From IMG/VR virus record IMGVR_UViG_2915264867_000002, positions 1-64,000 of that record: a stretch of 64,000 bases of DNA. One strand, written 5' to 3'. Numbering within the stretch: position 1 is the first letter of the stretch; each line of letters starts with the position of its first letter. Positions 2,714 through 63,636 of the stretch are shown one piece after another. The DNA is from a virus. Its lineage: Duplodnaviria > Caudoviricetes. The notes under the pieces were generated by a model. The model was not told the DNA's origin, searched no databases, and saw only the letters and a list, made by a program, of their open reading frames with translations. Both the position numbers and the translations under genes were made by a program.

Positions 2714-2731
2714 TAAGTCAGTACTGACTTA
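2714..2731. promoter_or_regulatory. 18-bp palindromic operator, perfect copy
   Basis: TAAGTCAGTACTGACTTA between the divergent helicase and ParB-like genes. Confidence 0.85.
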
Positions 2732-2751
2732 TTATCAATCACACCCATTCC

Positions 2752-3399
2752 ATGTCAAATCCCACCCTTACCACTGCCGATCCCCGCACGCTGACGCCGA
2801 ATCCCTGGAACACGAACATCGTCGGCCCGGACAACGAGGCCAAGATCGATGCCTCGATCAAGCGTCTGGGCATGTTCAAACCTATCGTCGTGCGCACCCT
2901 GGCCAGCGGTGAGCTGCAGATACTGGGCGGCGAACACCGAAATGGTTCGGCGATCCGTCTTGGCATGACGGAAGTCCCTATCGTCAATCTTGGCCAGATC
3001 AGCGACAAGAAGGCAAAAGAGATCGGCCTGGTCGACAACGGCCGCTACGGCAGTGATGACACCCTGCTGCTGACCAAACTCCTGGAGGAGATCGGCACGC
3101 CGGCCGAGCTGGGTGCGTTTTTGCCCTATTCTGACTCGGAATTCGAATCGATCTTTGCAAGCAGCACTATAGCTCTCGATGATCTTGATTTTCCGGATGA
3201 GGGCACCCCTACCCCAAGCCCTTCGACAACTGCCGCACCCCAGACCCACGTCATCATGCGCTTCAAGGTGCCAGTGGGCGATTCGGCCACGATCACCGAC
3301 GCCATCGAGCGGACAATGAAGCGTCAGCGCTTCACCGACGAGGACAGTCTCACCAATGCCGGCCACGCGCTGGTGCACATCATTGGCAACCTGGCATGA
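2752..3399 (+). CDS. ParB/Sulfiredoxin N-terminal domain protein 1
   Basis: LTPNPWNTN, GMFKPIVVR, ILGGEHR (ParB GxxR box), VPIV; acidic linker and short C-terminal domain. Confidence 0.8.
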   Translation: MSNPTLTTADPRTLTPNPWNTNIVGPDNEAKIDASIKRLGMFKPIVVRTLASGELQILGGEHRNGSAIRLGMTEVPIVNLGQISDKKAKEIGLVDNGRYGSDDTLLLTKLLEEIGTPAELGAFLPYSDSEFESIFASSTIALDDLDFPDEGTPTPSPSTTAAPQTHVIMRFKVPVGDSATITDAIERTMKRQRFTDEDSLTNAGHALVHIIGNLA

Positions 3400-3581
3400 A
3401 CATCCGGCCAGCGAACGGCAAGGACTACGTGTACTGCGAGTCCTGCCTCAACTTGGAAATCCCATTCGAGTGCCAGGGGTGCGACGCCGGGAGCAACTAC
3501 TCCGGCGCCGATCCTGACGAACTCGACGCGGCGCCCGCCGAAGCACCCCTCACCTTTATGCCCATTCAGGACGAACAATGA
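3396..3581 (+). CDS. Small CxxC-CxxC (Zn-ribbon-like) protein
   Basis: CESC...CQGC; ATGA overlaps with both neighbours. Confidence 0.55.
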   Translation: MNIRPANGKDYVYCESCLNLEIPFECQGCDAGSNYSGADPDELDAAPAEAPLTFMPIQDEQ

Positions 3582-3775
3582 TCGAAATTCTGTTCATCGC
3601 TGTGATCCTCGGGATCATTGCTGCCACCTACTGTTACTGCTGCATGTCCGAAGCCAGCTTCCCATTTGTCGCCATTTTCTCGATCGTGACAGGCGTTCTG
3701 ACCTCCTCTCTCGTACTGATCTCTGCGTTCATTTTCGTCACCCTGCGCGTGGTCTTGCAGATCCTGCCGCTCTAA
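3578..3775 (+). CDS. Small membrane protein (two hydrophobic segments)
   Basis: Almost entirely hydrophobic 65 aa; translationally coupled to the upstream ORF. Confidence 0.55.
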   Translation: MIEILFIAVILGIIAATYCYCCMSEASFPFVAIFSIVTGVLTSSLVLISAFIFVTLRVVLQILPL

Positions 3776-3790
3776 CATCAAGGAATATTT

Positions 3791-4069
3791 ATGGATAACC
3801 AGCACCGCAAGATCGCCGGCTACAACGAGTTCGACGCCGAGACGATCGACCTGATGAACCAGGTCCGCCAACACAACCACGAGATCGCCAAACTGGTCGA
3901 AATGGTCAAGCAGCGCATCGCTACCCAGCGCACTGCGGCGATCGGCGACGCCGACCTGACCCGCCGCATGAACGCTGCCGAGCCTGAGCGCTGGGCCGCG
4001 CTGGGCCGCACCAGCATCCAGCAAGGCCTGATGTTCCTCACGCGCGCTGTCGCGCAGCCGGAGTTCTGA
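3791..4069 (+). CDS. acb2: Anti-CBASS cyclic-oligonucleotide sponge protein Acb2 homologue
   Basis: MDNQHRKIAGY...IDLMNQV...AEPERWAALGRTSIQQGLMFLTRAVAQP closely follows the Pseudomonas phage Acb2 sequence as recalled (MDNQHKKIKGY...[28 protein letters not shown]); RBS AAGGA. Confidence 0.88.
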   Translation: MDNQHRKIAGYNEFDAETIDLMNQVRQHNHEIAKLVEMVKQRIATQRTAAIGDADLTRRMNAAEPERWAALGRTSIQQGLMFLTRAVAQPEF

Positions 4070-4071
4070 TC

Positions 4072-4734
4072 ATGGCGTCTACTGCAGCAAGCCCTGAAAT
4101 TCAAATGTGGGACACTGGCCGCCCACGCCCATACGCCAAGAACGCGAAAATGCACGACGACAGCCAGGTCGGCAAAATCGCCGCTTCGCTCGAGAAATTC
4201 GGCTGGCGCGGCAATCCGATCGTGGTGGACGAGAACGAAGAGATCCTTGCCGGCCACGGCCGGCGCCTGGCCGCCATCAAGCTGGGCCTGCCTCACGTAC
4301 CAGTGGTGCAGATCACCGACATGACCGAGGATGAAAAGCGAGCGTACCGTCTGGCCGATAACCGCGTCGCGATTTCCAACCTCGATACCGACCTGCTGCA
4401 GCAAGAGCTGGTGGACCTGGACTTCGACTTGAGCGGCTTCTTCGACAAGAAAGAGCTGGACTTCGTCATCGCCGACCTGGGCGAGCTGAACACGGACGCC
4501 TTTGTCACCGACCTCGACGCCGAGATTGCCAAGCAATCAGAGGAGACTGCAGAAACCATCGTGGCATCTGCCATGAAGGACGTCCCGATCGCCAAAGCGC
4601 TGGGCTTCAAGTCCATCAAGGGCGCCGACGAGCGGGCGGTGGCCATGTTCATCGCCCAGCTGGAGCACGAATCGGGCAAGTCGGGCGCCGAGGCCTTCAT
4701 GGAGTTCATCAACACGATGGCGGCCGCCGCATGA
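4072..4734 (+). CDS. ParB/Sulfiredoxin N-terminal domain protein 2
   Basis: RPYAKNAKMHDDSQVGKIAASLEKFGWRGNPIVVDE..ILAGHGRRLAA..VPV..RAYRLADNR, the typical phage ParB-N found near terminase and DNA-modification genes. Confidence 0.88.
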   Translation: MASTAASPEIQMWDTGRPRPYAKNAKMHDDSQVGKIAASLEKFGWRGNPIVVDENEEILAGHGRRLAAIKLGLPHVPVVQITDMTEDEKRAYRLADNRVAISNLDTDLLQQELVDLDFDLSGFFDKKELDFVIADLGELNTDAFVTDLDAEIAKQSEETAETIVASAMKDVPIAKALGFKSIKGADERAVAMFIAQLEHESGKSGAEAFMEFINTMAAAA

Positions 4735-5105
4735 GCCGCAACTTCTACGACACCATCCCAAAGTCGGTGCGCATCGGCAGCTACGACTTCAAGGTCGTTG
4801 TTATGCCCAACTTCGAACAGGCTTCCGACACCGTCTACGGTGACATGAACGCAGTGCTGCAGCGAATCCGCATTTGCGATGATCTGGCGCCGGCGCGCTT
4901 GGCCAATACCTTCATGCACGAGGTCATGCATGCAATCCATATGTTCTATGGCGTGGGCGACAAAACTATCGAGGAGGACACCACATTCCTCACCACCAAC
5001 GGTCTGTGCGCATTCTGGATGAACAACCCGGAGGCGGCCGCGTGGTGGGTGGACTGCGTCCTAAACGCCCCACAGAAACACGAAAATACGGAAACAAAGA
5101 AATGA
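4731..5105 (+). CDS. HExxH zinc-metallopeptidase-like protein
   Basis: NTFMHEVMHAIH motif; coupled ATGA overlaps. Confidence 0.6.
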   Translation: MSRNFYDTIPKSVRIGSYDFKVVVMPNFEQASDTVYGDMNAVLQRIRICDDLAPARLANTFMHEVMHAIHMFYGVGDKTIEEDTTFLTTNGLCAFWMNNPEAAAWWVDCVLNAPQKHENTETKK

Positions 5106-5758
5106 TTTTTACTGTAGATAAGCGCTTCCAGACCGCAGTTACCCGTACTGACCGCGTGCTGGAGATCGCCGAAGCATTCGGCCTGGGCCTGGACGACAAG
5201 GAATTCGTCGTCTTCGATAACCAGCCGATCGAGATCGAACAGGGTGACGTGGTGTACGTGACGGGCCAGTCCGGCGCCGGCAAGTCCACCGTACTACGTG
5301 AGCTGTCGGCCCTGATGACCGGTGCCGGCATGCATGTGGCCGATCTCGACGCCGTTCCGCTGCTCGACGTACCGCTGATCGACCAGATCGGTGCCACCAC
5401 GGCTGCTGCGCTGAACTTGCTGTCCGTGGCCGGCCTCAATGACGCCTACCTGTTCGTGCGCAAGCCTGCCGAACTGTCGGACGGCCAACGCTACCGCTTC
5501 CGCCTGGCCAAGCTGATCGAGTCCGGCGCCAAGGTCTGGGTCGCTGATGAATTCCTCGCCGTGCTGGACCGCACCACTGCGAAAGTGATCGCCTTCAACC
5601 TGCAGAAAATTGCGCGCATGGCCGGCGCCACGCTGCTCGTGGCCACCACGCACACCGACATGGTGCCCGACCTGGCGCCAAACGTGTACATCGAGAAGCG
5701 CTACCGCGAGAAGATCAAGATCGTCCACCGCGGCGGCGTAGTAGGGCAGCCCGCATGA
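5102..5758 (+). CDS. Soluble ABC-family ATPase (no permease partner)
   Basis: Walker A GQSGAGKST, signature LSDGQ, Walker B VADE, H-loop TTH. ATG at 5102, in frame with track ORF 5006..5758. Confidence 0.9.
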   Translation: MIFTVDKRFQTAVTRTDRVLEIAEAFGLGLDDKEFVVFDNQPIEIEQGDVVYVTGQSGAGKSTVLRELSALMTGAGMHVADLDAVPLLDVPLIDQIGATTAAALNLLSVAGLNDAYLFVRKPAELSDGQRYRFRLAKLIESGAKVWVADEFLAVLDRTTAKVIAFNLQKIARMAGATLLVATTHTDMVPDLAPNVYIEKRYREKIKIVHRGGVVGQPA

Positions 5759-6750
5759 TCGTCGCCGATAACGAGGACGTGCTGATCGAGCGCCGCGCGG
5801 TGCCGGCCAAGCACAAGCTGTCGCTGCTGAGCCAGATTTACGTCGAGCGCGGCACGAAGGAAGACTGGGACTTGCTGCACGAGCTGCACTACAAGGCTGA
5901 GAACCTAGGCATTGGCCCGCTGATTTACCGGTGCATCCTCGATGGCCAGGTGATCGGCGTAGGCGTCATGACGGTACCCAAAATGCTGCTGTCTGGCCGC
6001 AACGAGGCGTTTAAGCACATGCGGCCAAACCAGGCCGGCCGTGACACGAAGCTGATGAACCGCCACCGCGCGCTCTGGCTTAACGCTCACAGCTGCACCA
6101 ATTCGCGCCTGGTCCTGGACACGATGTACCGCGGCGCCGGTATTGCCTACCGCATGCAGAACCTCATGATGCGCATGACCGGCTGCCGCTACGTCGAGTT
6201 CCAGTCGTCGATGTCGAAGTTCAACCCGTTTGCCGCGCGCGCCGGCATGAAATTCACGAAGCCGCGGCGCAGCGCCAATTACAGCAAAGGCCTGGACTTC
6301 TTCCGGCGCTGGTTTGCCTCGGCCCCAATGGACTACGTCGGCATCCTCGCCGAGCTGGAGGCGTTCAAGGAACCGGTGCGGGCCAAGTGCGTCGCCGAAA
6401 TGCGCAAGTTCTACTACACCTGCTCGTCCATGGAAAAATCCGGCGACAACCGGGCCAACGGAACGTCGCGCGTGGACGCCATGGAGGTGCGCTACCTGCT
6501 CAAGTCGCTTCAGCAGTTGGTCCTGGCCAGCCCCCTTTACGGTGTGTTCACCAATCCCGACTTCGAAATGGGCGCTGGGACCGATTTTGAGTACCCGCCA
6601 CGCCTTCCATTGGTCGCGTTCGACAACCAGTCGCTAACTGAGCCGCTGGACCTGCAGCGGGCCGCTGAGCAGCTTGCCGCCATCACCATCAAAACCACCA
6701 TCGCTGAACCACAACTGGACGAACATGAACCTGACGACCAAGCAGATTGA
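5755..6750 (+). CDS. GNAT-fold acetyltransferase (Mom-like features)
   Basis: Acetyl-CoA motif A SRLVLDTMYRGAGIAYRM; N-terminal HELHY; coupled to the ABC ATPase. Confidence 0.7.
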   Translation: MIVADNEDVLIERRAVPAKHKLSLLSQIYVERGTKEDWDLLHELHYKAENLGIGPLIYRCILDGQVIGVGVMTVPKMLLSGRNEAFKHMRPNQAGRDTKLMNRHRALWLNAHSCTNSRLVLDTMYRGAGIAYRMQNLMMRMTGCRYVEFQSSMSKFNPFAARAGMKFTKPRRSANYSKGLDFFRRWFASAPMDYVGILAELEAFKEPVRAKCVAEMRKFYYTCSSMEKSGDNRANGTSRVDAMEVRYLLKSLQQLVLASPLYGVFTNPDFEMGAGTDFEYPPRLPLVAFDNQSLTEPLDLQRAAEQLAAITIKTTIAEPQLDEHEPDDQAD

Positions 6751-7042
6751 ACTGATCCGCGTAATCAACGAGGCGCCGTGCGACCTGGACGAGATCCTGG
6801 AGCGCGTGCGCTATTCCACCACCAAGCAAAGCCTGCAGTTCTCCATCCGGGCGCTCATCGGGCATGGCCTGATCGAGAAAAAAGGTCAGGAGAAGCGCCG
6901 CGGCCGCATGCGACAGGTCATCCAGATCACGACCCTTGGCTCCGGCTACGGCGGTAAGCAAATCCAGTTGGAGCCGAACCCTGTGATCTCCAACGTCGAG
7001 GACGATGAATTGGATGTCGACATGGAGATTCTGGAAGCATAA
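6725..7042 (+). CDS. Winged helix-turn-helix protein (MarR-like) with acidic tail
   Basis: LTTKQIELIRVI..DLDEILERV..TKQSLQFSIRALIGHGLIEK..RRGR..VIQITTLG; ATG 6725. Confidence 0.7.
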   Translation: MNLTTKQIELIRVINEAPCDLDEILERVRYSTTKQSLQFSIRALIGHGLIEKKGQEKRRGRMRQVIQITTLGSGYGGKQIQLEPNPVISNVEDDELDVDMEILEA

Positions 7043-7046
7043 ATAG

Positions 7047-7193
7047 TTGTCGTTCCGCTACTTATGCTCGACTTATGCTCGAGACGCGTTTCTATAAATA
7101 ATATATACATTCTATAAGTACATACTTACTATTTATTATTTGCGGAAAACGCAGTCGAGCATAAGTCGAGCATAAGTCCAAACGAACGACAGC
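7047..7193. repeat. Inverted-repeat site: 2x ACTTATGCTCG / AT-rich core / 2x CGAGCATAAGT
   Basis: 11-mers at 7060-7070 and 7071-7081; reverse complements at 7156-7166 and 7167-7177; about 55-bp AT-rich spacer. Confidence 0.85.
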
Positions 7194-7342
7194 GGAAAGG
7201 ATGAACGCCGGAACGGAGCCTCTTAGCCCGGGAAACTGAACCGGATCAGCCCTTCCCGCCAAACCCTGCGATGGCGATGCGGTGCGAGTGCGTGAGGTGC
7301 CCAGCACTCCTTCCTTGAACCTAATCGCCCCTCTACGCCAAA

Positions 7343-7370
7343 AAAGATAAGTCAGTATTGACTTATCTTT
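7343..7370. promoter_or_regulatory. Extended palindromic operator upstream of terminase
   Basis: AAAGATAAGTCAGTATTGACTTATCTTT (core 7348-7365, one mismatch). Confidence 0.85.
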
Positions 7371-7457
7371 GAGGCGGCGTTACAGTGGTGTCCATATGTT
7401 GAATGTTCCATATGGGCGCCCTCCCTGCGCCCATTTTTTTTGCCCGAAGGAATAGCA

Positions 7458-9337: not shown

Positions 9338-9345
9338 CTTTGGCC

Positions 9346-9375
9346 TTGACATGTAAGTCAGTACTGACTTACTAT
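9346..9375 (+). promoter_or_regulatory. sigma70-like promoter for portal with operator in the spacer
   Basis: TTGACA (9346-9351), 18 nt, TACTAT (9370-9375); perfect palindrome at 9354-9371. Confidence 0.75.
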
Positions 9376-9381
9376 CGCGCC

Positions 9382-11049: not shown

Positions 11050-11157
11050 CCCGAAAGGGCATTGGCGGCGCGTAAGCGCAAACCCTAACCCGCAGCGCCA
11101 CGCGACCGGCGCCGCACAACAACTCATTGACCTAGAGACTGGTCTGAAAGGTATCAG

Positions 11158-12021: not shown

Positions 12022-12056
12022 TCAAAGCTGGAAAAGTACTGACTCGCCCTTAAAAG

Positions 12057-12099
12057 TAAGTCAGTACTTATTTACATTTGTGCCTCAAAGTGTTATTGT
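12057..12099 (+). promoter_or_regulatory. Operator overlapping the -35 of the major capsid promoter
   Basis: TAAGTCAGTACTTATTTA (12057-12074); TTTACA (12071-12076), 17 nt, TATTGT (12094-12099). Confidence 0.7.
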
Positions 12100-13109: not shown

Positions 13110-13118
13110 GTAAAAATG

Positions 13119-13140
13119 TAAGTCAGTACTGACTTATAAT
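13119..13140 (+). promoter_or_regulatory. Perfect operator abutting TATAAT
   Basis: TAAGTCAGTACTGACTTA 13119-13136; TATAAT 13135-13140. Confidence 0.85.
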
Positions 13141-13168
13141 ATAAAGGCGGGCTTCGGCTCGCCTTTAT
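13141..13168 (+). terminator. Hairpin after MCP (terminator or mRNA stabiliser)
   Basis: ATAAAGGCGGGC-TTCG-GCTCGCCTTTAT. Confidence 0.65.
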
Positions 13169-13187
13169 TGCATTCTGAAAGGTGAAT

Positions 13188-16332: not shown

Positions 16333-16350
16333 TAAGTCAGTACTGACTTA
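16333..16350. promoter_or_regulatory. Perfect operator upstream of tail tube gene
   Basis: TAAGTCAGTACTGACTTA, just downstream of CATAAT (16324-16329). Confidence 0.85.
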
Positions 16351-22947: not shown

Positions 22948-24627
22948 TTACTTCCAAAACTTTACAGAATATGCAATATGCCTCTGACTTCCATATTTTA
23001 GTCTAGCCCACCCTGTTAATGGATTAACTAAAGTTGAGCCGAACGTCATTCCGGTGCTTGGACCGCCATCGAGGCGAATCGCGTTATCGATTTTTAACAG
23101 GCTAAAAATGGTACACAAATCATAAGCGCTCGTTTCACCATCCGATGTTGATGAAATTACTACGTAGCGACCGTCTTTCTCACCTAAAGCAGACCAGCGA
23201 TTTTTCAAAGTATCGGTAGTACAAACGCCATCTTTACGAATTGATGTCGAAGAGCTAATGACAAATGTATCAGGCAAGAAATTATAAATTTTATCATAGT
23301 CAAGCCACTTGCCGCGATAATTATTATTAACCGTAGCCAATACTCGTTTATTTCCTTGAGAGACGCCCGATGTATAATTAACACCTATCATCTCATTGCC
23401 GAATTTTGCATAACCTGATGGCCTGCCAGTTTGATTGGGGCCGGTGCCTTCGTCTCCAGCCCAATAAAATCCATTAACAGTAATCGCAGATTTACTCAAA
23501 GAATTTAGTTCCGATATAGTCTTTAAGTTCATTACTTCGGGATACTTGGCAGAGTAAGCCAGCCCTGCAGAAGCCTGTACCCCCATAGTATTAATAATGC
23601 CGATATGCACAAATGGGGCAGTATTCTCACACCAGTTCACGTTGAGAAAACCGGTTTGCTGGAGGTAGCTTTCAATGGTGTTCTGGTTTGCCGGATTTGA
23701 CAAAGTTTCCCAACATTGATTGACTACGACTGCGTTAGATGAGGCGTTTAACGAGTTTGCATCCCCTTCACGATCTAATCGTGAAATTTTCAGCAATCCA
23801 GTTTTAGTGAACTTTTTCGTTACCGTTCCCGATGAATCTGATGAAACGGACGATCGAGTCACTCCACTCGTAGGTTCCGGGGTCTGCGGAACAATTGTCG
23901 CGGACTTACCCCTCGCCATCACTTCGGACGTGACGGAGAATTCCTTTTTTGTTTCAATATAAGGAAAAATGTCTATACTTGGGTAAGCATTACCCACGTT
24001 ACGCACAGCGACGCTAAAAATCTGAGCATTTTCGGTAGCTCCAGCAGGGATTCTCAAATTAACCCCAAGCGGAAGCTGAACTGACGCGGCGGAGGCGGGA
24101 TCGTAATATACGACCTCTGCCTCATTATCCAAATATGACGAAACGGCTTGTTGAGGAAAATATACAACTTTACCAGTGCTAATTTTTTTCTTCAACACTA
24201 CTAAAATATCCGCTCCCTGAACGTCTTTTCCGAGAACAAGCGGAGCCTTGAGACTTACCTGGCCACTAACCGTCTTTTGCCCCGGAGTTTCACCAAAATA
24301 AATCGACTTGATTTCCCCATAAGGAACAGAAGAATCAAAGAGGATCGTTGCCCGACCTTCTAAAGTAGAGTGAATAGTGACATAGCTTTTAGGCGATGGT
24401 CTGAAGCAAGCGGTTGAAGAGCAAAATATCAAGTCTCCGATCTTGACATCTTGGTCGGGTTTAAGCCCTTCGGTAGAGATTGCCAGCCGAAGCCTTTTTG
24501 TACTCACATCTCTTGCATCGGTATTGGAATAATCAGCGACTGTAGTGGGCTGGAATGGATAGTGAGCCGCCTGCGCAGATAAGCATAGTGCTGAGGTGAG
24601 GATGAGGGTAGGTAAACTTTTTAGCAT
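22948..24627 (-). CDS. Secreted protein with C-terminal phosphodiester glycosidase (NAGPA/DUF2233-like) domain; moron
   Basis: Signal peptide MLKSLPTLILTSALCLSAQAA; ITVNGFY, RWSALG..YVVISS, NAIRLDGGPST; visibly lower GC; antisense inside the tail operon. Confidence 0.75.
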   Translation of the reverse strand: MLKSLPTLILTSALCLSAQAAHYPFQPTTVADYSNTDARDVSTKRLRLAISTEGLKPDQDVKIGDLIFCSSTACFRPSPKSYVTIHSTLEGRATILFDSSVPYGEIKSIYFGETPGQKTVSGQVSLKAPLVLGKDVQGADILVVLKKKISTGKVVYFPQQAVSSYLDNEAEVVYYDPASAASVQLPLGVNLRIPAGATENAQIFSVAVRNVGNAYPSIDIFPYIETKKEFSVTSEVMARGKSATIVPQTPEPTSGVTRSSVSSDSSGTVTKKFTKTGLLKISRLDREGDANSLNASSNAVVVNQCWETLSNPANQNTIESYLQQTGFLNVNWCENTAPFVHIGIINTMGVQASAGLAYSAKYPEVMNLKTISELNSLSKSAITVNGFYWAGDEGTGPNQTGRPSGYAKFGNEMIGVNYTSGVSQGNKRVLATVNNNYRGKWLDYDKIYNFLPDTFVISSSTSIRKDGVCTTDTLKNRWSALGEKDGRYVVISSTSDGETSAYDLCTIFSLLKIDNAIRLDGGPSTGMTFGSTLVNPLTGWARLKYGSQRHIAYSVKFWK

Positions 24628-24827: not shown

Positions 24828-24853
24828 TAAGTCAGCACTGACTTACGTATAAT
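24828..24853 (+). promoter_or_regulatory. Operator plus TATAAT restarting the tail-tip operon
   Basis: TAAGTCAGCACTGACTTA 24828-24845; TATAAT 24848-24853. Confidence 0.8.
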
Positions 24854-31793: not shown

Positions 31794-31811
31794 TAAGTCA
31801 GTACTTATTTA
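31794..31811. promoter_or_regulatory. Operator variant
   Basis: TAAGTCAGTACTTATTTA, identical to the 12057 copy; TAGACT at 31815-31820. Confidence 0.8.
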
Positions 31812-35140: not shown

Positions 35141-35578
35141 ATGAACCTGACTCAACACTTCAGCCTGGCCGAACTGATCGACTCCCAGATCGCCGCGCGC
35201 CGCGGCATCGACAACACTCCAGGTGCCGCAATCGTCCCCAACCTGCGTCGCGTCGCCGAAACCCTGGAACTGGTTCGCGCTCTGGTTAGTCGCCCTGTGA
35301 CCGTGTCCAGCGGCTACCGCTCGCCGGCTCTGAACATTGCGGCCGGCGGCTCACGCAGCAGCGCCCACCTGAAAGGCCTGGCGGCAGATATCAATGTGAC
35401 CGGAATCGCCGCAAGAGACCTGGCCAAGACAATTGCCAAATCCAGCATTGCCTTCGATCAGCTTATTTACGAGGGCACTTGGGTCCACGTCGGTTTGTCC
35501 GAAGGAGCGCCGCGCCGCGAGGTACTCACCGCCTGGTTTAAGCCTGGTGGCGTCACTTACACCAAAGGCATTTCGTAA
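35141..35578 (+). CDS. Endolysin, peptidase M15 family
   Basis: HFSLAEL, SSGYRSPALN, SAHLKGLAADI, WVHVG; ATG 35141. Confidence 0.92.
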   Translation: MNLTQHFSLAELIDSQIAARRGIDNTPGAAIVPNLRRVAETLELVRALVSRPVTVSSGYRSPALNIAAGGSRSSAHLKGLAADINVTGIAARDLAKTIAKSSIAFDQLIYEGTWVHVGLSEGAPRREVLTAWFKPGGVTYTKGIS

Positions 35579-36454: not shown

Positions 36455-36472
36455 TAAGTAAGTACTGACTTA
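36455..36472. promoter_or_regulatory. Operator variant
   Basis: TAAGTAAGTACTGACTTA before the post-lysis operon. Confidence 0.85.
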
Positions 36473-39617: not shown

Positions 39618-39635
39618 TATATAAGTACTGACTTA
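39618..39635. promoter_or_regulatory. Degenerate operator (right two-thirds conserved)
   Basis: TATATAAGTACTGACTTA. Confidence 0.6.
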
Positions 39636-39790: not shown

Positions 39791-40507
39791 ATGACCCAAG
39801 CAACCTCAACCGAGCTGACGGAAACCTTCGGCCCCTATTTCGGTTCCGAACTTGACTGGAGCAGCTGCGAGATTTTGGCCATTGCCAAGATCGACCGCAA
39901 GCTTCTCGGCCTGGATACGGCACTATACGAGAAGAAATGGTTCGACTATCGCAACATGCACCCGACAATGGCGACGTACCTGTTTGCGCACCACTTCAAT
40001 CGGGCATATGGCGACTTCATGGGCGAGTGCTTCGACCACAAGAAGCGCTTCATGGCGGCCTTTAAAGGCAAAGACGTGATGGCGGCCCGGGAGGTGAAAT
40101 CGTTTTGGAAGCTCCGCCAGAAGGTGGACGATATGGGAATGCGGTACGACTTTTTCATGCGTGAGGCAATGGCCTGGTGCGCCGGCCGCGGGTGGAAGCA
40201 ACCGCCCCGCCCTGCTCACCTCGCTACCCAGGACGAAGTGCTACTGCATGTGTCCAACATGTGGGAGTTGGAAAAGCGGGCCAAAATCCAATGGGCGGTG
40301 TCCGCCCGTTTTAAGGTCCAGAACTACGTCGGCGCCCCCGACCAGCTGGCCTATGAGCAGTACCTAATCTCGGCAATCGCCTCCCGCGCGCATCCGAAAT
40401 TCAGCTTACACGCCGCTCTGCATCAGTACGAAGCACTGCGGATCGAGGCCGCAATCAGCCATTTCCCCGAGCAGGCAATTCGCGAGGCGTGCGAGATAAG
40501 CCTGTAA
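39791..40507 (+). CDS. Hypothetical replication-region protein upstream of helicase
   Basis: 238-aa ORF after an AT-rich tract; KWFDYR and WKQPPRP motifs; no family recognised. Confidence 0.65.
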   Translation: MTQATSTELTETFGPYFGSELDWSSCEILAIAKIDRKLLGLDTALYEKKWFDYRNMHPTMATYLFAHHFNRAYGDFMGECFDHKKRFMAAFKGKDVMAAREVKSFWKLRQKVDDMGMRYDFFMREAMAWCAGRGWKQPPRPAHLATQDEVLLHVSNMWELEKRAKIQWAVSARFKVQNYVGAPDQLAYEQYLISAIASRAHPKFSLHAALHQYEALRIEAAISHFPEQAIREACEISL

Positions 40508-40510: not shown

Positions 40511-40532
40511 TAAGTAAGTACTGAGCTATAAT
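40511..40532 (+). promoter_or_regulatory. Operator variant plus TATAAT
   Basis: TAAGTAAGTACTGAGCTA 40511-40528; TATAAT 40527-40532. Confidence 0.8.
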
Positions 40533-40567: not shown

Positions 40568-40996
40568 ATGGAGAATCACATGAACGCACCCCTGCACCGT
40601 ACGCCGTCAGTTGATGATCGTGTACGCGCTGATCAAATCGCAGAAGCGCGTCGCTTATCGGAGAGCGAAGGCGTGGCCTTCAATGGCTTTCAACCCCGTC
40701 GCACTCTCACTGCCAACCGCCCTTCTCGCCCCACTCCGGCAGCCAAGAATGGTCCCGCCCCCTTGAAGGGTCACGAAGCGTTCTTGAAGGCGCTCGAGAA
40801 GTCGGGCGCCAACGTGATCGTGCAAAAGATCAGCGACGGCGAAGACATCCAGGGCACGATCGCACACAGCGACAAGTGGACGGTGACCATGCGCTCGGCC
40901 GGCAAGGACCGCGTCATCTTCAAGCACGACATCAGCGAGTTCAGCACCACCACCCCGCGGCTGGCGCCAGCCGCTTCGGAAGGACAGTCGGTATGA
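40568..40996 (+). CDS. Hfq/Sm-like protein with N-terminal extension
   Basis: HEAFLKALEKSGANVIVQKISDGEDIQGTIAHSDKWTVTM..RVIFKHDISEF aligns with Hfq [42 protein letters not shown]. Confidence 0.78.
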   Translation: MENHMNAPLHRTPSVDDRVRADQIAEARRLSESEGVAFNGFQPRRTLTANRPSRPTPAAKNGPAPLKGHEAFLKALEKSGANVIVQKISDGEDIQGTIAHSDKWTVTMRSAGKDRVIFKHDISEFSTTTPRLAPAASEGQSV

Positions 40997-43808: not shown

Positions 43809-43826
43809 TATGTCATTACTGACTTA
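43809..43826. promoter_or_regulatory. Degenerate operator
   Basis: TATGTCATTACTGACTTA (two mismatches). Confidence 0.7.
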
Positions 43827-44570: not shown

Positions 44571-45233
44571 ATGATCAACGAACAAATCCAGCATGACACG
44601 CACCACCTGCCGGCAGCCAGCGCCGGCGGCAACAACGCCTATTACCTTAAAGGCTGCGACACGGTCCAGCGCAGCCCATCGTACGCCGCCTGCCTATTCA
44701 AGATCGTCGAGATCGAGGCAGGCCGCGAAACCGATTACAACCGGGAATGCGGCGTCGCCATCCGCTCGCGCCAGTGCCGCGCGGTAGGCATGCACCAGGA
44801 AGAGCAATTAAAGGGCCAGGCGCTGTACTTCTTCCCGCGCAAGAAGGCGCACCTGCCGATGAAGGTTACTGGTGATTTTGGCGTCCCGATCACCAACCTC
44901 ACCGACCCGGCTCTCATTCCGAGCGATCGTGCGCCTGTACAGCGTTCTGCGCCGCTGAGCAAGCCAAAACCAGCAGCTATTCCCGATGTGTTGGGCTTGC
45001 CTCAAGACGGCTACGCCGCCGCAATCAACGCCGCCATTGCTGCCGCGCCACCTGCACCTGCACCTGCACCTGCACCAGCACCAGCGCCAGTACAAGCAAC
45101 CGCCGCACCGGTACCGCAGGCCAAGCCAGCTCTCGCCGCGCATGTAGCGCCGGCCGCGCGCCCTGCCCTGCAGCCAGGCGAAACCCCTTTGCAGTACGCC
45201 CGCCGCTTGGCGGCACTTAAAAACCCAACCTAA
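44571..45233 (+). CDS. Hypothetical protein, Cys-containing N-domain and Pro-Ala linker
   Basis: RBS AAAGGA; (CCTGCA)4 repeat at 45051-45074. Confidence 0.65.
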   Translation: MINEQIQHDTHHLPAASAGGNNAYYLKGCDTVQRSPSYAACLFKIVEIEAGRETDYNRECGVAIRSRQCRAVGMHQEEQLKGQALYFFPRKKAHLPMKVTGDFGVPITNLTDPALIPSDRAPVQRSAPLSKPKPAAIPDVLGLPQDGYAAAINAAIAAAPPAPAPAPAPAPAPVQATAAPVPQAKPALAAHVAPAARPALQPGETPLQYARRLAALKNPT

Positions 45234-48499: not shown

Positions 48500-48985
48500 T
48501 TATGATGGTTTCAGCGAAGAAACAACTTCCCGAAGTCTTTTTTTGTCTACCTCTGTCCGCAACTTTGGGTTAGGCACGCCACTTTCCCGAATCACTTCTA
48601 TCATTTCAATCTCCGCCGCAGTTAGCACCGGCTGGTGTTTGAAAATCGTCTCGAAAGTCGCCCACAGATCAGGATCGTACTCAGCCACGCACAGCGTGAA
48701 CAGATAGAACGGCTCGACATCCAAAGCTATCGCCATTGGAGCTATCTTTGCCATTGGCAACCTTGTCGCACCCGATTTAATCATCGAAATTACGTTTTGG
48801 GATTTGATGCCACAAGCCTTTGCTAGATCTTTTTGGGAAATGCCTGTCAAGTTTATCAACGCTGCTAGGTATTCATGGACCAGCGGCTTTACTTTGTGGC
48901 TATATTTCCTGCCTATGTACTGAGTCTGTTGCTCATCTTGCTTTTCTGCAGCTACCTTGCCGGCATCCATTGCCATTGCGCTCAT
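48500..48985 (-). CDS. XRE/cI-like HTH repressor
   Basis: ISQKDLAKACGIKSQNVISMIKSGATRLPMAKIAPMAIALDV; divergently transcribed; lower GC. Confidence 0.85.
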   Translation of the reverse strand: MSAMAMDAGKVAAEKQDEQQTQYIGRKYSHKVKPLVHEYLAALINLTGISQKDLAKACGIKSQNVISMIKSGATRLPMAKIAPMAIALDVEPFYLFTLCVAEYDPDLWATFETIFKHQPVLTAAEIEMIEVIRESGVPNPKLRTEVDKKRLREVVSSLKPS

Positions 48986-49016: not shown

Positions 49017-49194
49017 TCACTCACTGCTGACTGAGTGTCAGATCGTAATGATTATAGATTATACATCAGTACTTATTGACACTTGGGGATGTGTTAGGCC
49101 CCAACTTATGTGGATTTCGTGTGACTCCCGCTTCCATTTTAGCCCAAAATCCGTGACTTACAAGTGCAAAAGTAAGTCAATACTGAGCTATAAT
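49017..49194. promoter_or_regulatory. Divergent control region with one good and two degenerate operators
   Basis: TCACTCACTGCTGACTGA 49017-49034; TACATCAGTACTTATTGA 49062-49079; TAAGTCAATACTGAGCTA 49173-49190 with TATAAT 49189-49194; minus-strand TATAAT at 49051-49056 and 49058-49063. Confidence 0.7.
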
Positions 49195-49251: not shown

Positions 49252-49464
49252 ATGAGCGTCGAAGTGACACAGAGCAACACCGAACAAGCCGAGAAGTTCC
49301 AGATCGTAGACATCGACTTTGTGGCCGATATCCTCGCGGAGTCGCATATTTGCGAGACTGCAGACTTAGGAACCACACTGGTACACAAGGTAAAGCACCC
49401 AGTTCGTGGCATGCTCATCATCATCAACACCATCGGTTCTAAGCACATCGTATTGCCTGCTTAA
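49252..49464 (+). CDS. Small hypothetical protein divergent from the repressor
   Basis: RBS AGGAG; first gene after the operator/TATAAT. Confidence 0.6.
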   Translation: MSVEVTQSNTEQAEKFQIVDIDFVADILAESHICETADLGTTLVHKVKHPVRGMLIIINTIGSKHIVLPA

Positions 49465-49557
49465 CACGTCAAACATAAGTCAGTCCGTATGTATATCACG
49501 AATCGTTTGTTTTGCCGATTACATTTAGACCATTACTGAATAAACTTAGGGCGATCG

Positions 49558-49613: not shown

Positions 49614-49631
49614 TCAGTCAGTACTGACTTA
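49614..49631. promoter_or_regulatory. Operator variant
   Basis: TCAGTCAGTACTGACTTA just before the CobT-like gene RBS. Confidence 0.8.
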
Positions 49632-51654: not shown

Positions 51655-51672
51655 TAAGTAAGTACTGACTTG
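51655..51672. promoter_or_regulatory. Operator variant
   Basis: TAAGTAAGTACTGACTTG. Confidence 0.8.
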
Positions 51673-51764
51673 TATATCCTGACGGGTTTGCGTATCATTC
51701 TCTATGTCGATTCAACAGACACCCACTAACACCGGGCATGTGCCCAACCAAAGGAGAGTAAGTA

Positions 51765-52979: not shown

Positions 52980-52990
52980 TCGAGGTCGCC

Positions 52991-53740
52991 ATGACCCGGG
53001 CACTGAAAATCGAGGAGAACATCGGTCTGGTCCACTTTCACGCCAAGCGTGGCTTCAAGTGGGCTGACGGTGCCGGAAGCGGGCTTACCTACGAGGATAT
53101 GTTCCAAGTGGCCAGCCTGGCCTTCTGGACCGCCGTACAGGGGTTCAACCCCGACAACGGCAACGGCTTTGCCGCTTACTACGGCATGGTCGCGTACAGC
53201 GAGTTTCGCAAGGAAATTGGCGTCATGACAGGCGTCAAAAACTTGAACCCTGGCCAGCGCAGCGATATCGAGGCGCGCAAACAAGAAAACGCCCGCCGCC
53301 GCGCTGCCGGCGAGGCTCAGCTGCCAGAAATGAACTACGGTTTGGCGCCAGTGAGCTTTGGCGAAATCGGTGGTGGAAACGAAGATGGCGACTTCACCCC
53401 GTTCGAAGACACATTGGCCTCCCCCGAGCGTACCCCGGAAGAGATCGTCGAATTTCGCCAGCAGTGGGAACTGGCAACGGCCGGTATCAGCCCACTGGCG
53501 GAACTGGTGATCGACTGGCTGCGTGACCCGCCCCCTGCACTTCAGCAGGAGCTAGCCAGCCAGGCCGCCCATGCCGACCTGATTACGGCCGCCGGTGGCC
53601 GGGCACACGGACTGCGTGACGGCGTGAGCGTCAAGGCCGTGATCAAGTTTCTGGCAATGGTAGGGGATGTCTCCCGCGAAGAATTAATGATGGTCGAGGC
53701 TGAACTGCGCGGCATCGTCAGTAAATTGGAAAAAGCATAA
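52991..53740 (+). CDS. Sigma-70 region-2-like protein (putative phage sigma factor)
   Basis: NIGLVHFHAKR..YEDMFQVASLAFWTAVQGFNPDNGNGFAAYY parallels NLRLV..AKRY..DLIQEG..GL..AV..FD..G..FSTYA. Confidence 0.7.
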   Translation: MTRALKIEENIGLVHFHAKRGFKWADGAGSGLTYEDMFQVASLAFWTAVQGFNPDNGNGFAAYYGMVAYSEFRKEIGVMTGVKNLNPGQRSDIEARKQENARRRAAGEAQLPEMNYGLAPVSFGEIGGGNEDGDFTPFEDTLASPERTPEEIVEFRQQWELATAGISPLAELVIDWLRDPPPALQQELASQAAHADLITAAGGRAHGLRDGVSVKAVIKFLAMVGDVSREELMMVEAELRGIVSKLEKA

Positions 53741-57955: not shown

Positions 57956-57972
57956 AAATTTAGCTCGGACAG

Positions 57973-58005
57973 TAAGTCAGTACTGATTTATGTCCGGGCT
58001 ATAAT
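57973..58005 (+). promoter_or_regulatory. Operator variant and TATAAT
   Basis: TAAGTCAGTACTGATTTA 57973-57990; TATAAT 58000-58005. Confidence 0.8.
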
Positions 58006-58047
58006 CTGTAATATAAATATTCGATAGACTAACCAAATGGAGAATGT

Positions 58048-58974: not shown

Positions 58975-58994
58975 GACCATTTTGCCTAAAAAGA

Positions 58995-59016
58995 TAAGTA
59001 AGTACTGAGCTATAAT
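58995..59016 (+). promoter_or_regulatory. Operator variant plus TATAAT
   Basis: TAAGTAAGTACTGAGCTA 58995-59012; TATAAT 59011-59016; same sequence as the 40511 copy. Confidence 0.8.
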
Positions 59017-59076
59017 TAATGCGCTGAACGACGAAAGTCTAAAGGCAACAACCCTACCAAAAACTGAAAGAGAAAA

Positions 59077-59904: not shown

Positions 59905-59912
59905 GAACCAGC

Positions 59913-59945
59913 AAAAAGGGCCGACACGTAGTCGGCTCTTTTTTT
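59913..59945. terminator. Intrinsic terminator
   Basis: AAAAAGGGCCGAC-ACGTA-GTCGGCTCTTTTTTT. Confidence 0.85.
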
Positions 59946-59947
59946 CT

Positions 59948-60982: not shown

Positions 60983-60992
60983 GGAAACACAG

Positions 60993-62063
60993 ATGGCTAC
61001 CTCTCCAAAGAACTCTGGCACCGCCGAAGACCTGATGAAGCTGCTCGATGCAGCGATCGGTGAGAATGACGGCAATTCCCGCGTCACCCAGTTCATCGAT
61101 ACCGGCTTTGCGCCGCTCAACGAAGCGCTGTCGGGCCGTCCTGATGGAGGTCTTCCGTTCGGCCGCATGGTTGAAATGTTTGGCGAGTCGTCCTCGGGCA
61201 AAACCGCCCTGGCCACCGAATGGATGGTGCAAGCGCAAAAGATGGGCGGCGTGGCCGGCTTCATCGACTGGGAACGCTCGTTCGACGTCGGCCTGGCCGA
61301 GGGCTTCGGCTTGAACAGCGCGCGCCCGTACTGGCTCTACAACAAGGCGGAGACGTGGGAAAGTGGCAACGCTTGGGCTGGCAAGGCCTGCCGTGCAATC
61401 CGCGCATCGAAAGCTATCCCTGACTCGGCACCGATTTTGTTTGTGTTTGATTCGATCGCGTCGGCTATTCCGATGTCGATGCTGTACGACGCCAAGGGCG
61501 TGCGCCGCGAGATCGACACCTTCACCATGAACGACACGTCGGCGCTGTCTCGTGTGACGTCCACTACGCTCAAGGTGATGGCGCAGTACTGCGAGGAATA
61601 TAACGCCACCTTCCTGTACCTGAACCAGATTCGCCTCAAGATCGGCGTCGTGTTCGGCGACCCGCGCACCACCCCGGGCGGCAAGGCGATGGAATACTAC
61701 GCCACCAACCGCATTTCGCTCGGTCGCGAAAAGATCATGTTGCAGTCCAAGGGCGGCAAGGAATTCGTGGGCCAGAACATCAAGATCGAAGTCACCAAGT
61801 CCAAGCTGACCAAGCCATTCAAGAAGACGGAGCTGCGCATGTCCTTCGACGAAGACGGCGTGGCGCGCTTCGACCGCGACTATTCGCTGGTGGAGCTGAT
61901 GCTGGAGCAAAAGCTGCTGGACTCACCATCGAACGGCTACGTTACGTGGGATGGCAAGCGTTTGTCCAAGCGCAGCATGGCTGATCTGATCGGCGCCGAA
62001 ACTGGTCTGCGCGAGAAACTGGTCGCGATGATGTTCCCCGAAAACGACGACGCTACCGCCTAA
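60993..62063 (+). CDS. recA: RecA/UvsX-like recombinase
   Basis: IDTG..LN..L..GGLPFGRMVEMFGESSSGKT, FVFDSIA, LNQIRLKIG..FGDPRTTPGGKAMEYYA. Confidence 0.93.
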   Translation: MATSPKNSGTAEDLMKLLDAAIGENDGNSRVTQFIDTGFAPLNEALSGRPDGGLPFGRMVEMFGESSSGKTALATEWMVQAQKMGGVAGFIDWERSFDVGLAEGFGLNSARPYWLYNKAETWESGNAWAGKACRAIRASKAIPDSAPILFVFDSIASAIPMSMLYDAKGVRREIDTFTMNDTSALSRVTSTTLKVMAQYCEEYNATFLYLNQIRLKIGVVFGDPRTTPGGKAMEYYATNRISLGREKIMLQSKGGKEFVGQNIKIEVTKSKLTKPFKKTELRMSFDEDGVARFDRDYSLVELMLEQKLLDSPSNGYVTWDGKRLSKRSMADLIGAETGLREKLVAMMFPENDDATA

Positions 62064-62133
62064 GAATCAGCTGGAGTCATAACTATAATGCAACCGCGCG
62101 GCAACATCGTCGCGGTTGTTTATAGGAGTTCGC

Positions 62134-62484
62134 ATGCACGTACAAGTTATCGGTTTCATCCCGCCGCACGTTGGCCTGGAAGGCGAATTCAACACAGTCC
62201 GTCTGGGCGGCAAGATGGCGAAAGTTTTGACACCGGGTCAGGAAGTGTTCCTGATGGACGAGAAAGAAAAGGCCGTATTTGGGCGCGCTGCGGTGATCAG
62301 CGTTGAAATGGGCAAGCTGGAAGAGCTTTGCGAGGTCCACGCACACAAGAATCACACCGAGCTGGCAAACGATCCGGCTGGCGCCCCGCAGCGTCTGATG
62401 ACCTTCATCCAGAAAATCTTTGGCCCGCACATCGCCCCACCACACAAGCGTACTTGTGTGGTGTATTTGAGGAGGATTGAGTGA
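62134..62484 (+). CDS. ASCH/PUA-like protein
   Basis: FNTVRLG..PGQEVFL..FGRAAVISV..L..HA..N..IFG..VVYL; RBS AGGAG. Confidence 0.6.
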   Translation: MHVQVIGFIPPHVGLEGEFNTVRLGGKMAKVLTPGQEVFLMDEKEKAVFGRAAVISVEMGKLEELCEVHAHKNHTELANDPAGAPQRLMTFIQKIFGPHIAPPHKRTCVVYLRRIE

Positions 62485-62810
62485 GTGATATCGGATTAGA
62501 AAACACCCTCCCTTGGGGAAAGTACAAGGGACAAAAAGTCGCAGAAATATTCAAGAAGGACGCGGCCTACCTCTGCTGGCTTCGTGAGCAGCGGAAGAAA
62601 GAAAGCAGCGACACGAAATTCTTCGCCCGGGAAGTTCACCTCCTGTTGGACGCGGCAATCGACAGCGAAAAATCGCTTCGATTCCACTACACGTCCTGGG
62701 GTACCAATCTCGTCGCTGAGCACGAGGTAGCTCAAGACATGGCAAGGCAGCGGGCCGAACGGGCGGCAATTGACGCGGCCTGTTACGACGAATCCTGGGG
62801 GATGTTTTGA
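62481..62810 (+). CDS. Protein with ExoX C-terminal-like (DUF3820-like) motif
   Basis: LPWGKYKGQKVAEI..DAAYLCWL. Confidence 0.7.
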   Translation: MSDIGLENTLPWGKYKGQKVAEIFKKDAAYLCWLREQRKKESSDTKFFAREVHLLLDAAIDSEKSLRFHYTSWGTNLVAEHEVAQDMARQRAERAAIDAACYDESWGMF

Positions 62811-63172
62811 GCGTCCGTACCGAAAACCGTCTGATGGGCAAGCTGACTGGCGTGTTCTACGAGACGGCCGGCGGCAGCAAGCTGTACCTGGCGCTGCGCA
62901 GCAAGCGCGAGATCATGCGTGCCAAGTACGCCTGGTGCATCGAAGCATCGGCCCTGCAGAAGTGCCGCGACGCCGGCATTACAGCGGTCGGGGTTCTTTG
63001 GAAGGACGGCAGCAAGCGAATGGTCCACCTGACGCATATCGACGACTGGGAAGGGCCAAACAGTTTCCCCCTATTCACCCACTGCAAGCAGCGATGCCTT
63101 CCCATGAAGGCGTTTCGAGTTGATCCAATGCGATCCGAAGCGGTCATCGCAAAAGCAATCAAACTGCGCTGA
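62807..63172 (+). CDS. Hypothetical protein
   Basis: Coupled ORF, basic. Confidence 0.6.
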   Translation: MSVRTENRLMGKLTGVFYETAGGSKLYLALRSKREIMRAKYAWCIEASALQKCRDAGITAVGVLWKDGSKRMVHLTHIDDWEGPNSFPLFTHCKQRCLPMKAFRVDPMRSEAVIAKAIKLR

Positions 63173-63186
63173 TCCGCGGTCAATTG

Positions 63187-63216
63187 TAAGTAAGTCCTGA
63201 CTTACTAGACTATAAT
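63187..63216 (+). promoter_or_regulatory. Operator variant and TATAAT
   Basis: TAAGTAAGTCCTGACTTA 63187-63204; TATAAT 63211-63216. Confidence 0.78.
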
Positions 63217-63247
63217 GACCATTGATACAGAGATTTTGAGGTACCGC

Positions 63248-63625
63248 ATGGGCATTTCAGCAGCATTGATGTGCCTCGCGCTCAACATTTATAACGAGGC
63301 GCGAGGTGAGGTTTTAGGAGGTCAGCAAGCAGTTGCGCTAGTCACGATGAACCGAGCGGGATGGGAACCCAAACGGGTTTGCGAGGAGGTACATAGGCCG
63401 GGGCAATTCAGCTGGACAACCGGGAAGCAAGGGCCGCCGAAGGAAAAAGAGGCCTGGGATTTAGCGCTGGAAGTGGCGCGCGACGTAATGAACCGCCGGG
63501 TACCAGACTTCACCGACGGAGCGACCTTCTTCCACGCCAAGCGTGTGCGCCCGAAGTGGCGCCACACTGAGCAATACGTGATGACTCTAGGTAGTCATCT
63601 TTTTTATAAATCCAGTAATAAGTAA
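63248..63625 (+). CDS. SleB-like cell wall hydrolase (Hydrolase_2)
   Basis: CLALNIYNEARGE..QQAVALVTMNR..QFSW..DFTDGATFFHA..PKW..LGSHLFY; RBS GAGG before ATG 63248. Confidence 0.9.
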   Translation: MGISAALMCLALNIYNEARGEVLGGQQAVALVTMNRAGWEPKRVCEEVHRPGQFSWTTGKQGPPKEKEAWDLALEVARDVMNRRVPDFTDGATFFHAKRVRPKWRHTEQYVMTLGSHLFYKSSNK

Positions 63626-63636
63626 GTACTGACATA
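63619..63636. promoter_or_regulatory. Operator variant
   Basis: TAAGTAAGTACTGACATA, overlapping the hydrolase stop codon and abutting the next RBS. Confidence 0.8.

Follow-up and report, generated by a model that had tools for sequence, protein, structure and literature searches.

Silencing of a whole replicon by one regulator that recognizes many scattered copies of a single operator is known from phage P1, plasmid RK2, and the Cluster A phages L5 and Bxb1. The C1 repressor of P1, which belongs to a phage-plasmid lineage, acts alone on more than 15 scattered operators that overlap promoters, and in RK2 a palindromic operator recurs about a dozen times at varying distances from promoters under KorB/KorA regulators that are themselves autoregulated. 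In L5 and Bxb1, 25–35 copies of one repressor site, termed stoperators, are distributed along both arms of the genome in short gaps between genes, also within the late structural region, and the immunity repressor silences the whole prophage directly through them (PMC9283540, PMC6550527). Here we analyzed the first 64 kb (64,000 nucleotides; hereafter, the window) of the 86,941-bp provirus record IMGVR_UViG_2915264867_000002, in which an 18-bp palindrome, TAAGTCAGTACTGACTTA, is repeated across both the structural and the replication arm, and we propose the same logic for it. Judging from the sequence, we somewhat favor the view that a dimeric repressor made by the phage uses the palindromes as its operators; the most likely repressor is the XRE protein (Cro/CI type) encoded at 48500–48985.

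The original prediction had placed 20 copies in the window, and a search for TAAGTCAGTACTGACTTA allowing up to three mismatches recovered exactly these starts, from 2714 to 63619, with no match in 100 dinucleotide-preserving shuffles of the window. Four copies are perfect (2714, 9354, 13119, and 16333). The weaker copies reported at 49017, 49062, and 49476 were likewise found, with five mismatches each, as was a further degenerate copy at 51755 (five mismatches). The full prophage holds 25 copies, the extra five lying at 68201, 68762, 72168, 80126, and 80980. The placement claimed for them, intergenic or at gene junctions, was confirmed for the whole set: 24 of the 25 are fully intergenic, and the copy at 63619 covers the last 7 nt of the upstream open reading frame (ORF). 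Equal abundance inside coding sequences had been named as an observation that would speak against the idea, and we found instead that the copies are restricted to the 6.7% of the prophage that is non-coding (chance P ~4e-30). Many occupy very short gene junctions, 3–35 nt past the upstream stop codon. Almost all rightward operons, including those for DNA modification and ParB, packaging, head, tail, lysis, replication, recombination, and nucleotide metabolism, have a palindrome at or beside the promoter, and a further one lies between the divergent helicase and ParB promoters. No copy was detected in the approximately 3.3 kb of left host flank that was scanned. The exact 18-mer occurred in only two IMG/VR contigs and in only seven stretches among the genomes of 185,579 species, which is about the chance expectation.

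The provirus (G000 in our numbering; 58% G+C) sits in the 1.29-Mb chromosomal contig WHIV01000002.1, with host ABC-transporter genes starting within 1 kb of the left edge of the window and an integrase-like gene at the right end of the prophage. According to the gene map, 93.3% of the prophage is coding and nearly all of its genes are on the plus strand. On the basis of gene order and protein similarity, we assign it to the SSU5/nickie group of siphophages and phage-plasmids. It is collinear with nickie and SSU5, and its portal-to-tail region shares 68–73% nucleotide identity with Stenotrophomonas phage BUCTxx99, Pseudomonas phage nickie, Rhizobium phage RHph_Y2_11, and SSU5-like phages of Klebsiella and Salmonella; no near-identical record was found in phage or plasmid collections. 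The SSU5-like family is large, comprising phages and phage-plasmids of Enterobacteriaceae and of soil and plant Proteobacteria, and some of its elements carry antibiotic-resistance genes (PMC9600943). For comparison, we used 80 IMG/VR loci retrieved through the capsid protein (67–86% identity), 20 related records (G numbers), 17 of which are at least 90% complete, and the virulent, motif-free genomes of nickie, BUCTxx99, and JGB6.

In the 80 loci, AGTCA-N4-TGACT recurs at matching junctions: it precedes the ParB operon, terS, and the portal and major tail genes, and it flanks the capsid gene, with the downstream copy just past the end of that gene. The 20 related records hold 9–38 copies of GTCA-N4-TGAC each (17–38 in 18 of them), against 0–10 copies of the reversed control pattern except where the latter overlaps the motif itself. 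The arms vary between lineages, with CAGTCr-N4-TGACTG in G014, AGTAA-N4-TTACT in G017, TA(A/G)GTA-N6-TAC(T/C)TA in SSU5, the phage-plasmid Cyrano, and a Klebsiella phage, and AATCA-ATAT-TGA(T/C)T in RHph_Y2_11. No copy was found in the whole genomes of nickie, BUCTxx99, and JGB6 or in the partial contigs L025 and L059. Symmetric arms are thus kept from Salmonella and E. coli elements to Rhizobium phages, which argues for a phage-encoded dimer rather than a host factor. The center of the palindrome is uniform within a genome and differs between genomes, and it may be a determinant of immunity specificity. In L046, L055, and L060, the 4-nt center is asymmetric (AAAC) and points in the same direction relative to transcription at all six intergenic sites of a locus. 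We found no description of the palindrome, or of lysogeny control in SSU5-like elements, SSU5 and pHCM2 included, in the searchable literature.

Alignment of the 25 copies extended the consensus to tTTt.GCCt.AAAAgA, the palindrome, and T.aTt, with directional flanks, and in 17 of them a TAnnnT hexamer begins at the last TA of the palindrome. The variant TAAGTAAGTACTGAGCTA is identical at 40511, 58995, and 72168, and its TGAGC right arm also occurs at 49173 and 68201. At 40511, 51655, 58995, 68201, and 72168, a T3-4(G/A)CC box and an A-tract lie 8–15 nt upstream of the palindrome, which produces an apparent TTGCC-N23-TAnnnT spacing. The copies in the window and the regulatory genes considered below are as follows.

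2714–2731: perfect copy between the divergent helicase gene (936–2678, minus strand) and the ParB_N operon (2752 onward, plus strand), just downstream of the rightward -10 (TTGCCA-17-TAAAGT) and the leftward -10 (TTGACA-16-GATAAT) of face-to-face promoters
6725–7042, plus strand: winged-helix gene, PadR/MarR-like, 105 amino acids, last gene before terS; rival candidate binder
7348–7365: one mismatch, upstream of terS; the right arm forms the -35 TTGACT of TTGACT-17-TACAGT, and palindromy runs 5 bp past the 18-mer on each side
9354–9371: perfect copy between terL and the portal gene, within the 18-bp spacer of TTGACA...TACTAT
12057–12074: two mismatches, upstream of the major capsid gene, overlapping the -35 TTTACA (12071)
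13119–13136: perfect copy 9 nt past the stop of the capsid gene; its last TA begins TATAAT, and an intrinsic-terminator-like hairpin follows directly
16333–16350: perfect copy 3 nt past the -10 CATAAT, upstream of the major tail gene
24828–24845: one mismatch, upstream of the tail-tip operon, with TATAAT 2 nt downstream
31794–31811: two mismatches, 5 nt past the upstream stop codon
34714–34731: one mismatch, upstream of the lysis region (Peptidase_M15 gene at 35141)
36455–36472: one mismatch, within TTGAGA-17-TATTAT
39618–39635: three mismatches, within TTGTCG-17-TATCAT, at the head of the replication arm
40511–40528: variant TAAGTAAGTACTGAGCTA followed by TAAT, upstream of the Hfq-like/DnaB operon; no hairpin fold
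43809–43826: two mismatches, downstream of the primase gene
48500–48985, minus strand: XRE gene, Cro/CI-type (HTH_3), 161 amino acids, one of the few leftward genes; preferred candidate binder
49017–49034: degenerate copy with five mismatches, in the XRE upstream region
49062–49079: degenerate copy with five mismatches, in the XRE upstream region, adjoining a minus-strand TATAAT, the possible XRE promoter
49173–49190: three mismatches (right arm TGAGC followed by TATAAT), promoter of the cro-position gene; relatives retain this variant there
49252–49464, plus strand: cro-position gene, 70 amino acids, divergent from XRE and syntenic with CYRAN_46
49476–49493: degenerate copy with five mismatches, after the cro-position gene
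49614–49631: one mismatch, immediately 5′ of the ribosome-binding site of the CobT-like gene
51655–51672: two mismatches, upstream of the operon of the CobS/MoxR-like ATPase and the sigma factor
52991–53740, plus strand: phage sigma factor gene (Sigma70_r2), listed only as a possible second layer of control
57973–57990: one mismatch, after dnaE, with an added flanking inverted repeat (CGGACA/TGTCCG)
58995–59012: variant TAAGTAAGTACTGAGCTA followed by TAAT, upstream of an operon syntenic with the SSB, exonuclease, and RecA genes of nickie
63187–63204: two mismatches, upstream of a cell-wall hydrolase gene
63619–63636: two mismatches, 8 nt past TATAAA and immediately 5′ of the ribosome-binding site GGAG

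The promoter hexamers quoted in the original prediction are all present (TATAAT at 13135, 24848, 40527, 49189, and 59011; TTGACA at 9346; TTTACA at 12071). A consensus scan of the first 20 kb returned 12 sigma-70-like matches against 5.4 expected; seven of these touch a palindrome, and five of the six palindromes there have such a match. The palindrome occupies the spacer at 9354, the -35 hexamer at 7348 and 12057, and the position just after the -10 at 16333. We then considered 267 non-redundant palindrome instances from the 80 related loci, among which 49 lie within a 17-bp spacer between cTTGcga and TAgAAT, another 49 adjoin a TTGACA with TAnaGT 17 bp on (palindrome center at about -41.5), and 18 are located about 8 nt past a TATAGT and are followed by a ribosome-binding site. 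Spacers measure 17–18 bp wherever both hexamers are recognizable, which does not fit a MerR-type activated promoter with a dyad in an over-long spacer of 19–20 bp. The argument that a variable position favors repression is supported by the sequence, since the palindrome shifts across the core promoter (spacer, -35, after the -10) as repressor sites do; this geometry fits repression and not a sigma element or an activator working at a fixed distance. Just after the capsid stop, at 13119–13175, the palindrome and a -10-like hexamer are followed by a strong intrinsic-terminator hairpin with a T-run, and a transcript begun at this hexamer would hit the terminator at once. The order of palindrome, -10, and terminator is syntenic in L003, L005, L006, SSU5 (5472), and RHph_Y2_11 (10566), and the motif-free BUCTxx99 and JGB6 keep only the terminator.

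The XRE protein matches HTH_3 at 29.5 bits, above the Pfam cut-off of 23. Its structural model contains a five-helix Cro/CI helix-turn-helix (HTH) domain and a helical C-terminal domain, and it superposes on the DNA-binding domains of P22 c2 and 434 Cro with TM scores of 0.79–0.83 and root-mean-square deviations of 1.4–1.9 Å. Proteins of this type bind palindromes of 14–18 bp as dimers. Homologues with 34–48% identity were found in 16 of the 17 near-complete relatives, and one was found in RHph_Y2_11. Cyrano encodes CYRAN_45, which is 41% identical over the HTH region and lies in the same int-XRE-cro-cobT arrangement, and orthologues of CYRAN_45 are present in eight further full-length E. coli/Klebsiella phage-plasmids. 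Escherichia phage PhiR41_1, recorded on E. coli K-12 MG1655, has an orthologue about 97% identical to CYRAN_45. No XRE homologue was found in the motif-free nickie, BUCTxx99, and JGB6. XRE and the motif therefore co-occur in the temperate members and are both absent from the three virulent genomes, with SSU5 as the one clear exception. The degenerate copies described upstream of the XRE gene were confirmed, and the XRE-cro region is the densest cluster, with five sites in about 600 bp; in Cyrano, a good copy lies about 35 nt upstream of the XRE start codon. A word-based homologue search with XRE returned only two proteins because the protein diverges too fast for the method, as immunity repressors do. 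Transcription of CYRAN_45 in lysogens of E. coli LF82 exceeds the prophage background 10-fold, its product is listed by the authors as the putative repressor, and Cyrano is induced 39-fold by ciprofloxacin (PMC9928086).

Under our preferred reading, a repressor dimer would sit on each palindrome in the lysogen and block RNA polymerase by covering the spacer, the -35 hexamer, or the start site; where the gap between genes is very short, it could possibly act as a roadblock. The perfect copies at the ParB, portal, post-capsid, and tail junctions, as opposed to the TGAGC and TATAAT variant at the cro-position, helicase, and recombination promoters, would provide graded affinities that allow the early genes to escape first on induction, and the degenerate copies before the XRE gene would mediate its autoregulation.

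Several observations weigh against this assignment. In the replication arm (39.5–59.4 kb), only one of eight palindromes has a recognizable -35; these sites have a good -10 (TATAAT), but their -35 region is A-rich and poor, and a T3-4(G/A)CC box precedes it; the same is true of SSU5. Because many replication-arm sites thus have no usable -35 hexamer, some of them may require an activator. Pfam gives no S24 peptidase match for XRE, and the C-terminal half of its model is all-helical, neither of which fits a LexA-like autocleaving CI. Its recognition helix is far more variable than the invariant AGTCA arms. The first residues of this helix vary by clade (NKP, KSQ, STP, KRP, and TQS), and the groups track the local flank and center bases of the motif, but this grouping is confounded by shared ancestry. 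Two motif carriers were found without XRE. In G017, no XRE was detectable, although only 333 bp of the record precede the CobT-like gene, on the side where XRE would be expected. SSU5 keeps about 26 sites, and neither direct nor profile searches found an XRE homologue in it. When SSU5 (NC_018843, 41.7–42.8 kb) was compared with Cyrano (OV696614, 41.0–43.1 kb), SSU5 proved to be without the int-XRE-cro block, which in Cyrano and eight other E. coli/Klebsiella phage-plasmids sits between tRNA genes and cobT. We assume that SSU5 lost this block by a recent deletion. The comparison is consistent with SSU5 being a lytic deletion derivative, and SSU5 was isolated as a plaque-forming phage. Apart from tail genes and a lipoprotein, nothing was found that is common only to SSU5 and G017, and no regulator is among these genes; SSU5_121, annotated as a transcriptional repressor, is an FljA-like moron.

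Taken together, promoter association, family conservation, and co-occurrence with XRE support, at the level of sequence, the claim that these are dispersed operators of one phage regulator. The accompanying claim that they operate instead of a cascade is unproven, because the phage encodes a sigma factor (52991–53740) and many replication-arm promoters have no usable -35, and this leaves room for a second layer of control beside the palindrome. The choice of XRE as the best candidate gains from its co-occurrence with the motif and loses from the fact that the winged-helix protein at 6725 has evidence of its own.

That protein is the main competitor. If it were the binder, the palindromes would still be operators, XRE would control only a local switch, and the winged-helix gene, which ends the ParB operon whose promoter has a perfect copy, would be under negative autoregulation; we consider this unlikely, though well worth weighing. 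The protein matches HTH_27 at 24.3 bits (cut-off 22.2), and 149 homologues of it were found in databases. All 20 relatives encode it, as do the XRE-less SSU5 (49% identity) and the Klebsiella phage. In genomes with AGTCA arms, its predicted recognition helix, TK(Q/A)S(L/I)QFSIRAL, and its Arg-rich wing, EKRRGR, scarcely vary; this near-constancy of the helix sets it apart from XRE. Position 37 is Met in the genomes with AGTAA arms (SSU5, Klebsiella, and G017), and the protein is strongly diverged in RHph_Y2_11, where the arms are AATCA, and in the motif-free nickie. The model is confident for residues 1–70 (block mean predicted local distance difference test [pLDDT] 91–97; overall mean 82), its best PDB matches are PadR and MarR regulators, and the AT-rich symmetric flanks of the palindrome would suit wing contacts in the minor groove. 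However, the palindrome-free BUCTxx99, JGB6, L025, and L059 retain the gene, and the helix it encodes there is not very different, so its conserved role does not seem to depend on the palindromes. G005 has exactly the recognition helix of G001 and G004 yet different motif flanks, and the fold shows no obvious dimerization helices. The location of the gene just before terS, beside a large symmetric repeat, suggests a role in packaging. This repeat, a 147-bp structure at 7047–7193 between the winged-helix gene and terS, consists of two tandem ACTTATGCTCG repeats, an AT-rich core with the mini-palindrome TAAGTACATACTTA, and then both 11-mers inverted; in the relative G001, repeats of GCATAAGT precede the terS site. 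The 147-bp structure may be a packaging site or an array bound by the winged-helix protein.

A combination of the two is also conceivable, in which two unrelated phage proteins read the same palindrome: XRE would set immunity through the flank and center bases, the PadR-like protein would read the invariant arms, and the position of the site (-41.5, spacer, or +1) would decide between activation and repression. We regard this as improbable. If true, one 18-bp word would program both the lysogenic silencing and the lytic timing of a whole 90–110-kb genome, and most of the regulatory cascade would be replaced across the SSU5 supercluster.

It is more doubtful still that the palindrome acts positively, as a promoter element recognized either by the phage sigma factor or by an activator offsetting the poor replication-arm -35 (T3-4GCC box, A-tract, palindrome, and TAnnnT). 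The directional extended consensus, the TAnnnT starting from the last two bases of the palindrome in 17 of the 25 copies, the replication-arm sites without sigma-70 -35 hexamers, and the 49 sites in relatives centered about -41.5 from a TTGACA/TAnaGT pair, which is the classical class II activator position, all point this way. Nevertheless, a sigma factor does not read a symmetric element, and the position of the palindrome relative to the hexamers is not fixed. The sigma gene occurs in 18 of the 20 IMG/VR relatives, in BUCTxx99, and in RHph_Y2_11 but not in G014, SSU5, nickie, or the Klebsiella phage. It is thus missing from the motif-bearing G014 (100% complete, with no room between the ATPase gene and the next gene), SSU5, and Klebsiella phage and present in the motif-free BUCTxx99, and this phyletic pattern rules out the sigma factor as the binder. 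The same box and A-tract also precede the palindrome in SSU5 (45125, 55696, and 63081), which has no sigma gene, as they do in the present prophage, which has one.

We consider it very improbable that the palindrome acts as a nucleic-acid hairpin, be it a 5′ stem-loop, an RNA processing site, a weak terminator, or a DNA cruciform. Perfect copies do fold at -8.6 to -13.9 kcal/mol (z -2.2 to -6.9), several would fall at the very 5′ end of the transcript beside the ribosome-binding site, and 8 of 213 instances extend the palindrome by 5–9 site-specific base pairs against about 0.2 expected. The variant TAAGTAAGTACTGAGCTA, however, folds no better than shuffled sequences (-0.7 to -1.5 kcal/mol), arm changes in the present prophage are not compensated (a left AGTAA pairs with a right TGACT), and most relatives keep the arm sequence and not merely the pairing. 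No T-run follows the palindrome, and genuine terminators exist separately. Among the relatives, extended palindromes were seen at G004:8118, G004:99692, G002 77182 (32442 in the reverse-complemented view), and G005:64682, where 6–9 further site-specific base pairs produce perfect stems of 11–14 bp, for example GCTGCATC-AGTCA-N4-TGACT-GATGCAGC.

Least probable of all is binding by the ParB_N protein (2752–3399), acting in the manner of KorB, or by a host global regulator: a perfect palindrome lies directly upstream of the ParB_N gene, and RK2 KorB, which has dispersed palindromic operators, is homologous to ParB, but the ParB-like alternative offered by the original prediction fails on co-occurrence, with such genes kept in the motif-free nickie, BUCTxx99, and JGB6, and a host factor is at odds with hosts that span Enterobacteriaceae to Rhizobium, a motif that tracks the phage lineage, and an exact 18-mer that is about as frequent as chance predicts among the genomes of 185,579 species.

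Some other genes in the window also deserve mention. A 559-amino-acid gene on the minus strand (22948–24627), located between the tape-measure and tail-tip modules, has low G+C (0.40 at third codon positions vs. about 0.75 in its neighbors), a weak NAGPA (phosphodiester glycosidase) match, and no homologue in any of the relatives compared; it looks like a recently acquired moron. Within the ParB/ABC-ATPase operon, the gene at 3791–4069, as called on the host contig, matches Pfam Acb2_Tad1_hairpin, the anti-CBASS sponge family. The first gene of the DnaB helicase operon, the ORF at 40568–40996, matches Pfam Hfq (E 4e-9, residues 70–128) behind a basic N-terminal extension and is conserved in the IMG/VR relatives. 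For the conserved genes at 39791–40507 and 44571–45233, Pfam, PHROGs, and the ESM Atlas returned no function.

If one repressor and one 18-bp operator run every operon, the switch that governs lysogeny throughout the family can be tested directly. The flanks of the operator and the recognition helix of XRE would then allow immunity groups to be predicted, sequence alone would separate temperate from virulent members, and the set of operators and promoters would constitute a compact toolkit for gene control. Because dispersed-operator silencing is already known from P1, L5, and RK2, we claim no new principle; what is new here is the family-wide conservation and a testable pairing of repressor and operator. 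The prophage appears to carry the features by which a dispersed-operator regulon is recognized, namely more than 10 copies, placement in intergenic regions and at promoters, and gain or loss together with the repressor gene.

The likeness to each known system is partial, and the L5 stoperators are as near a parallel as P1 C1 or KorB. P1 has asymmetric 17-mer operators and controls its late structural operons indirectly through Lpa, and C1 is not homologous to XRE, whereas here the head, tail, and lysis junctions carry the operator directly. KorB of RK2 is a ParB homologue able to act at a distance, whereas the sites described here lie within or beside the core promoter. The lambdoid repressors CI/Cro, P22 c2, and 434 share the HTH fold, a repressor gene divergent from a small cro-position gene, and palindromic operators of 14–18 bp with conserved outer bases and a variable center; they differ in using two or three operator clusters and a cascade (N, Q), against about 25 single operators and no S24 autocleavage domain here. 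With regard to the Cluster A phages, the lytic D29 lost its repressor gene by deletion from a temperate parent (PMC5712189, PMC9283540), which parallels SSU5 and Cyrano. The L5 stoperators are asymmetric 13-bp sites that are bound by a two-domain monomer, depend on orientation, and act mainly by stopping elongation. Membership in that class was rejected for the present sites, which are palindromic and directional only in their flanks. In contrast to L5, the prophage and its relatives in Proteobacteria carry an 18-bp palindrome that implies a dimer, mostly placed on promoter hexamers and putatively read by an HTH_3 Cro/CI repressor.

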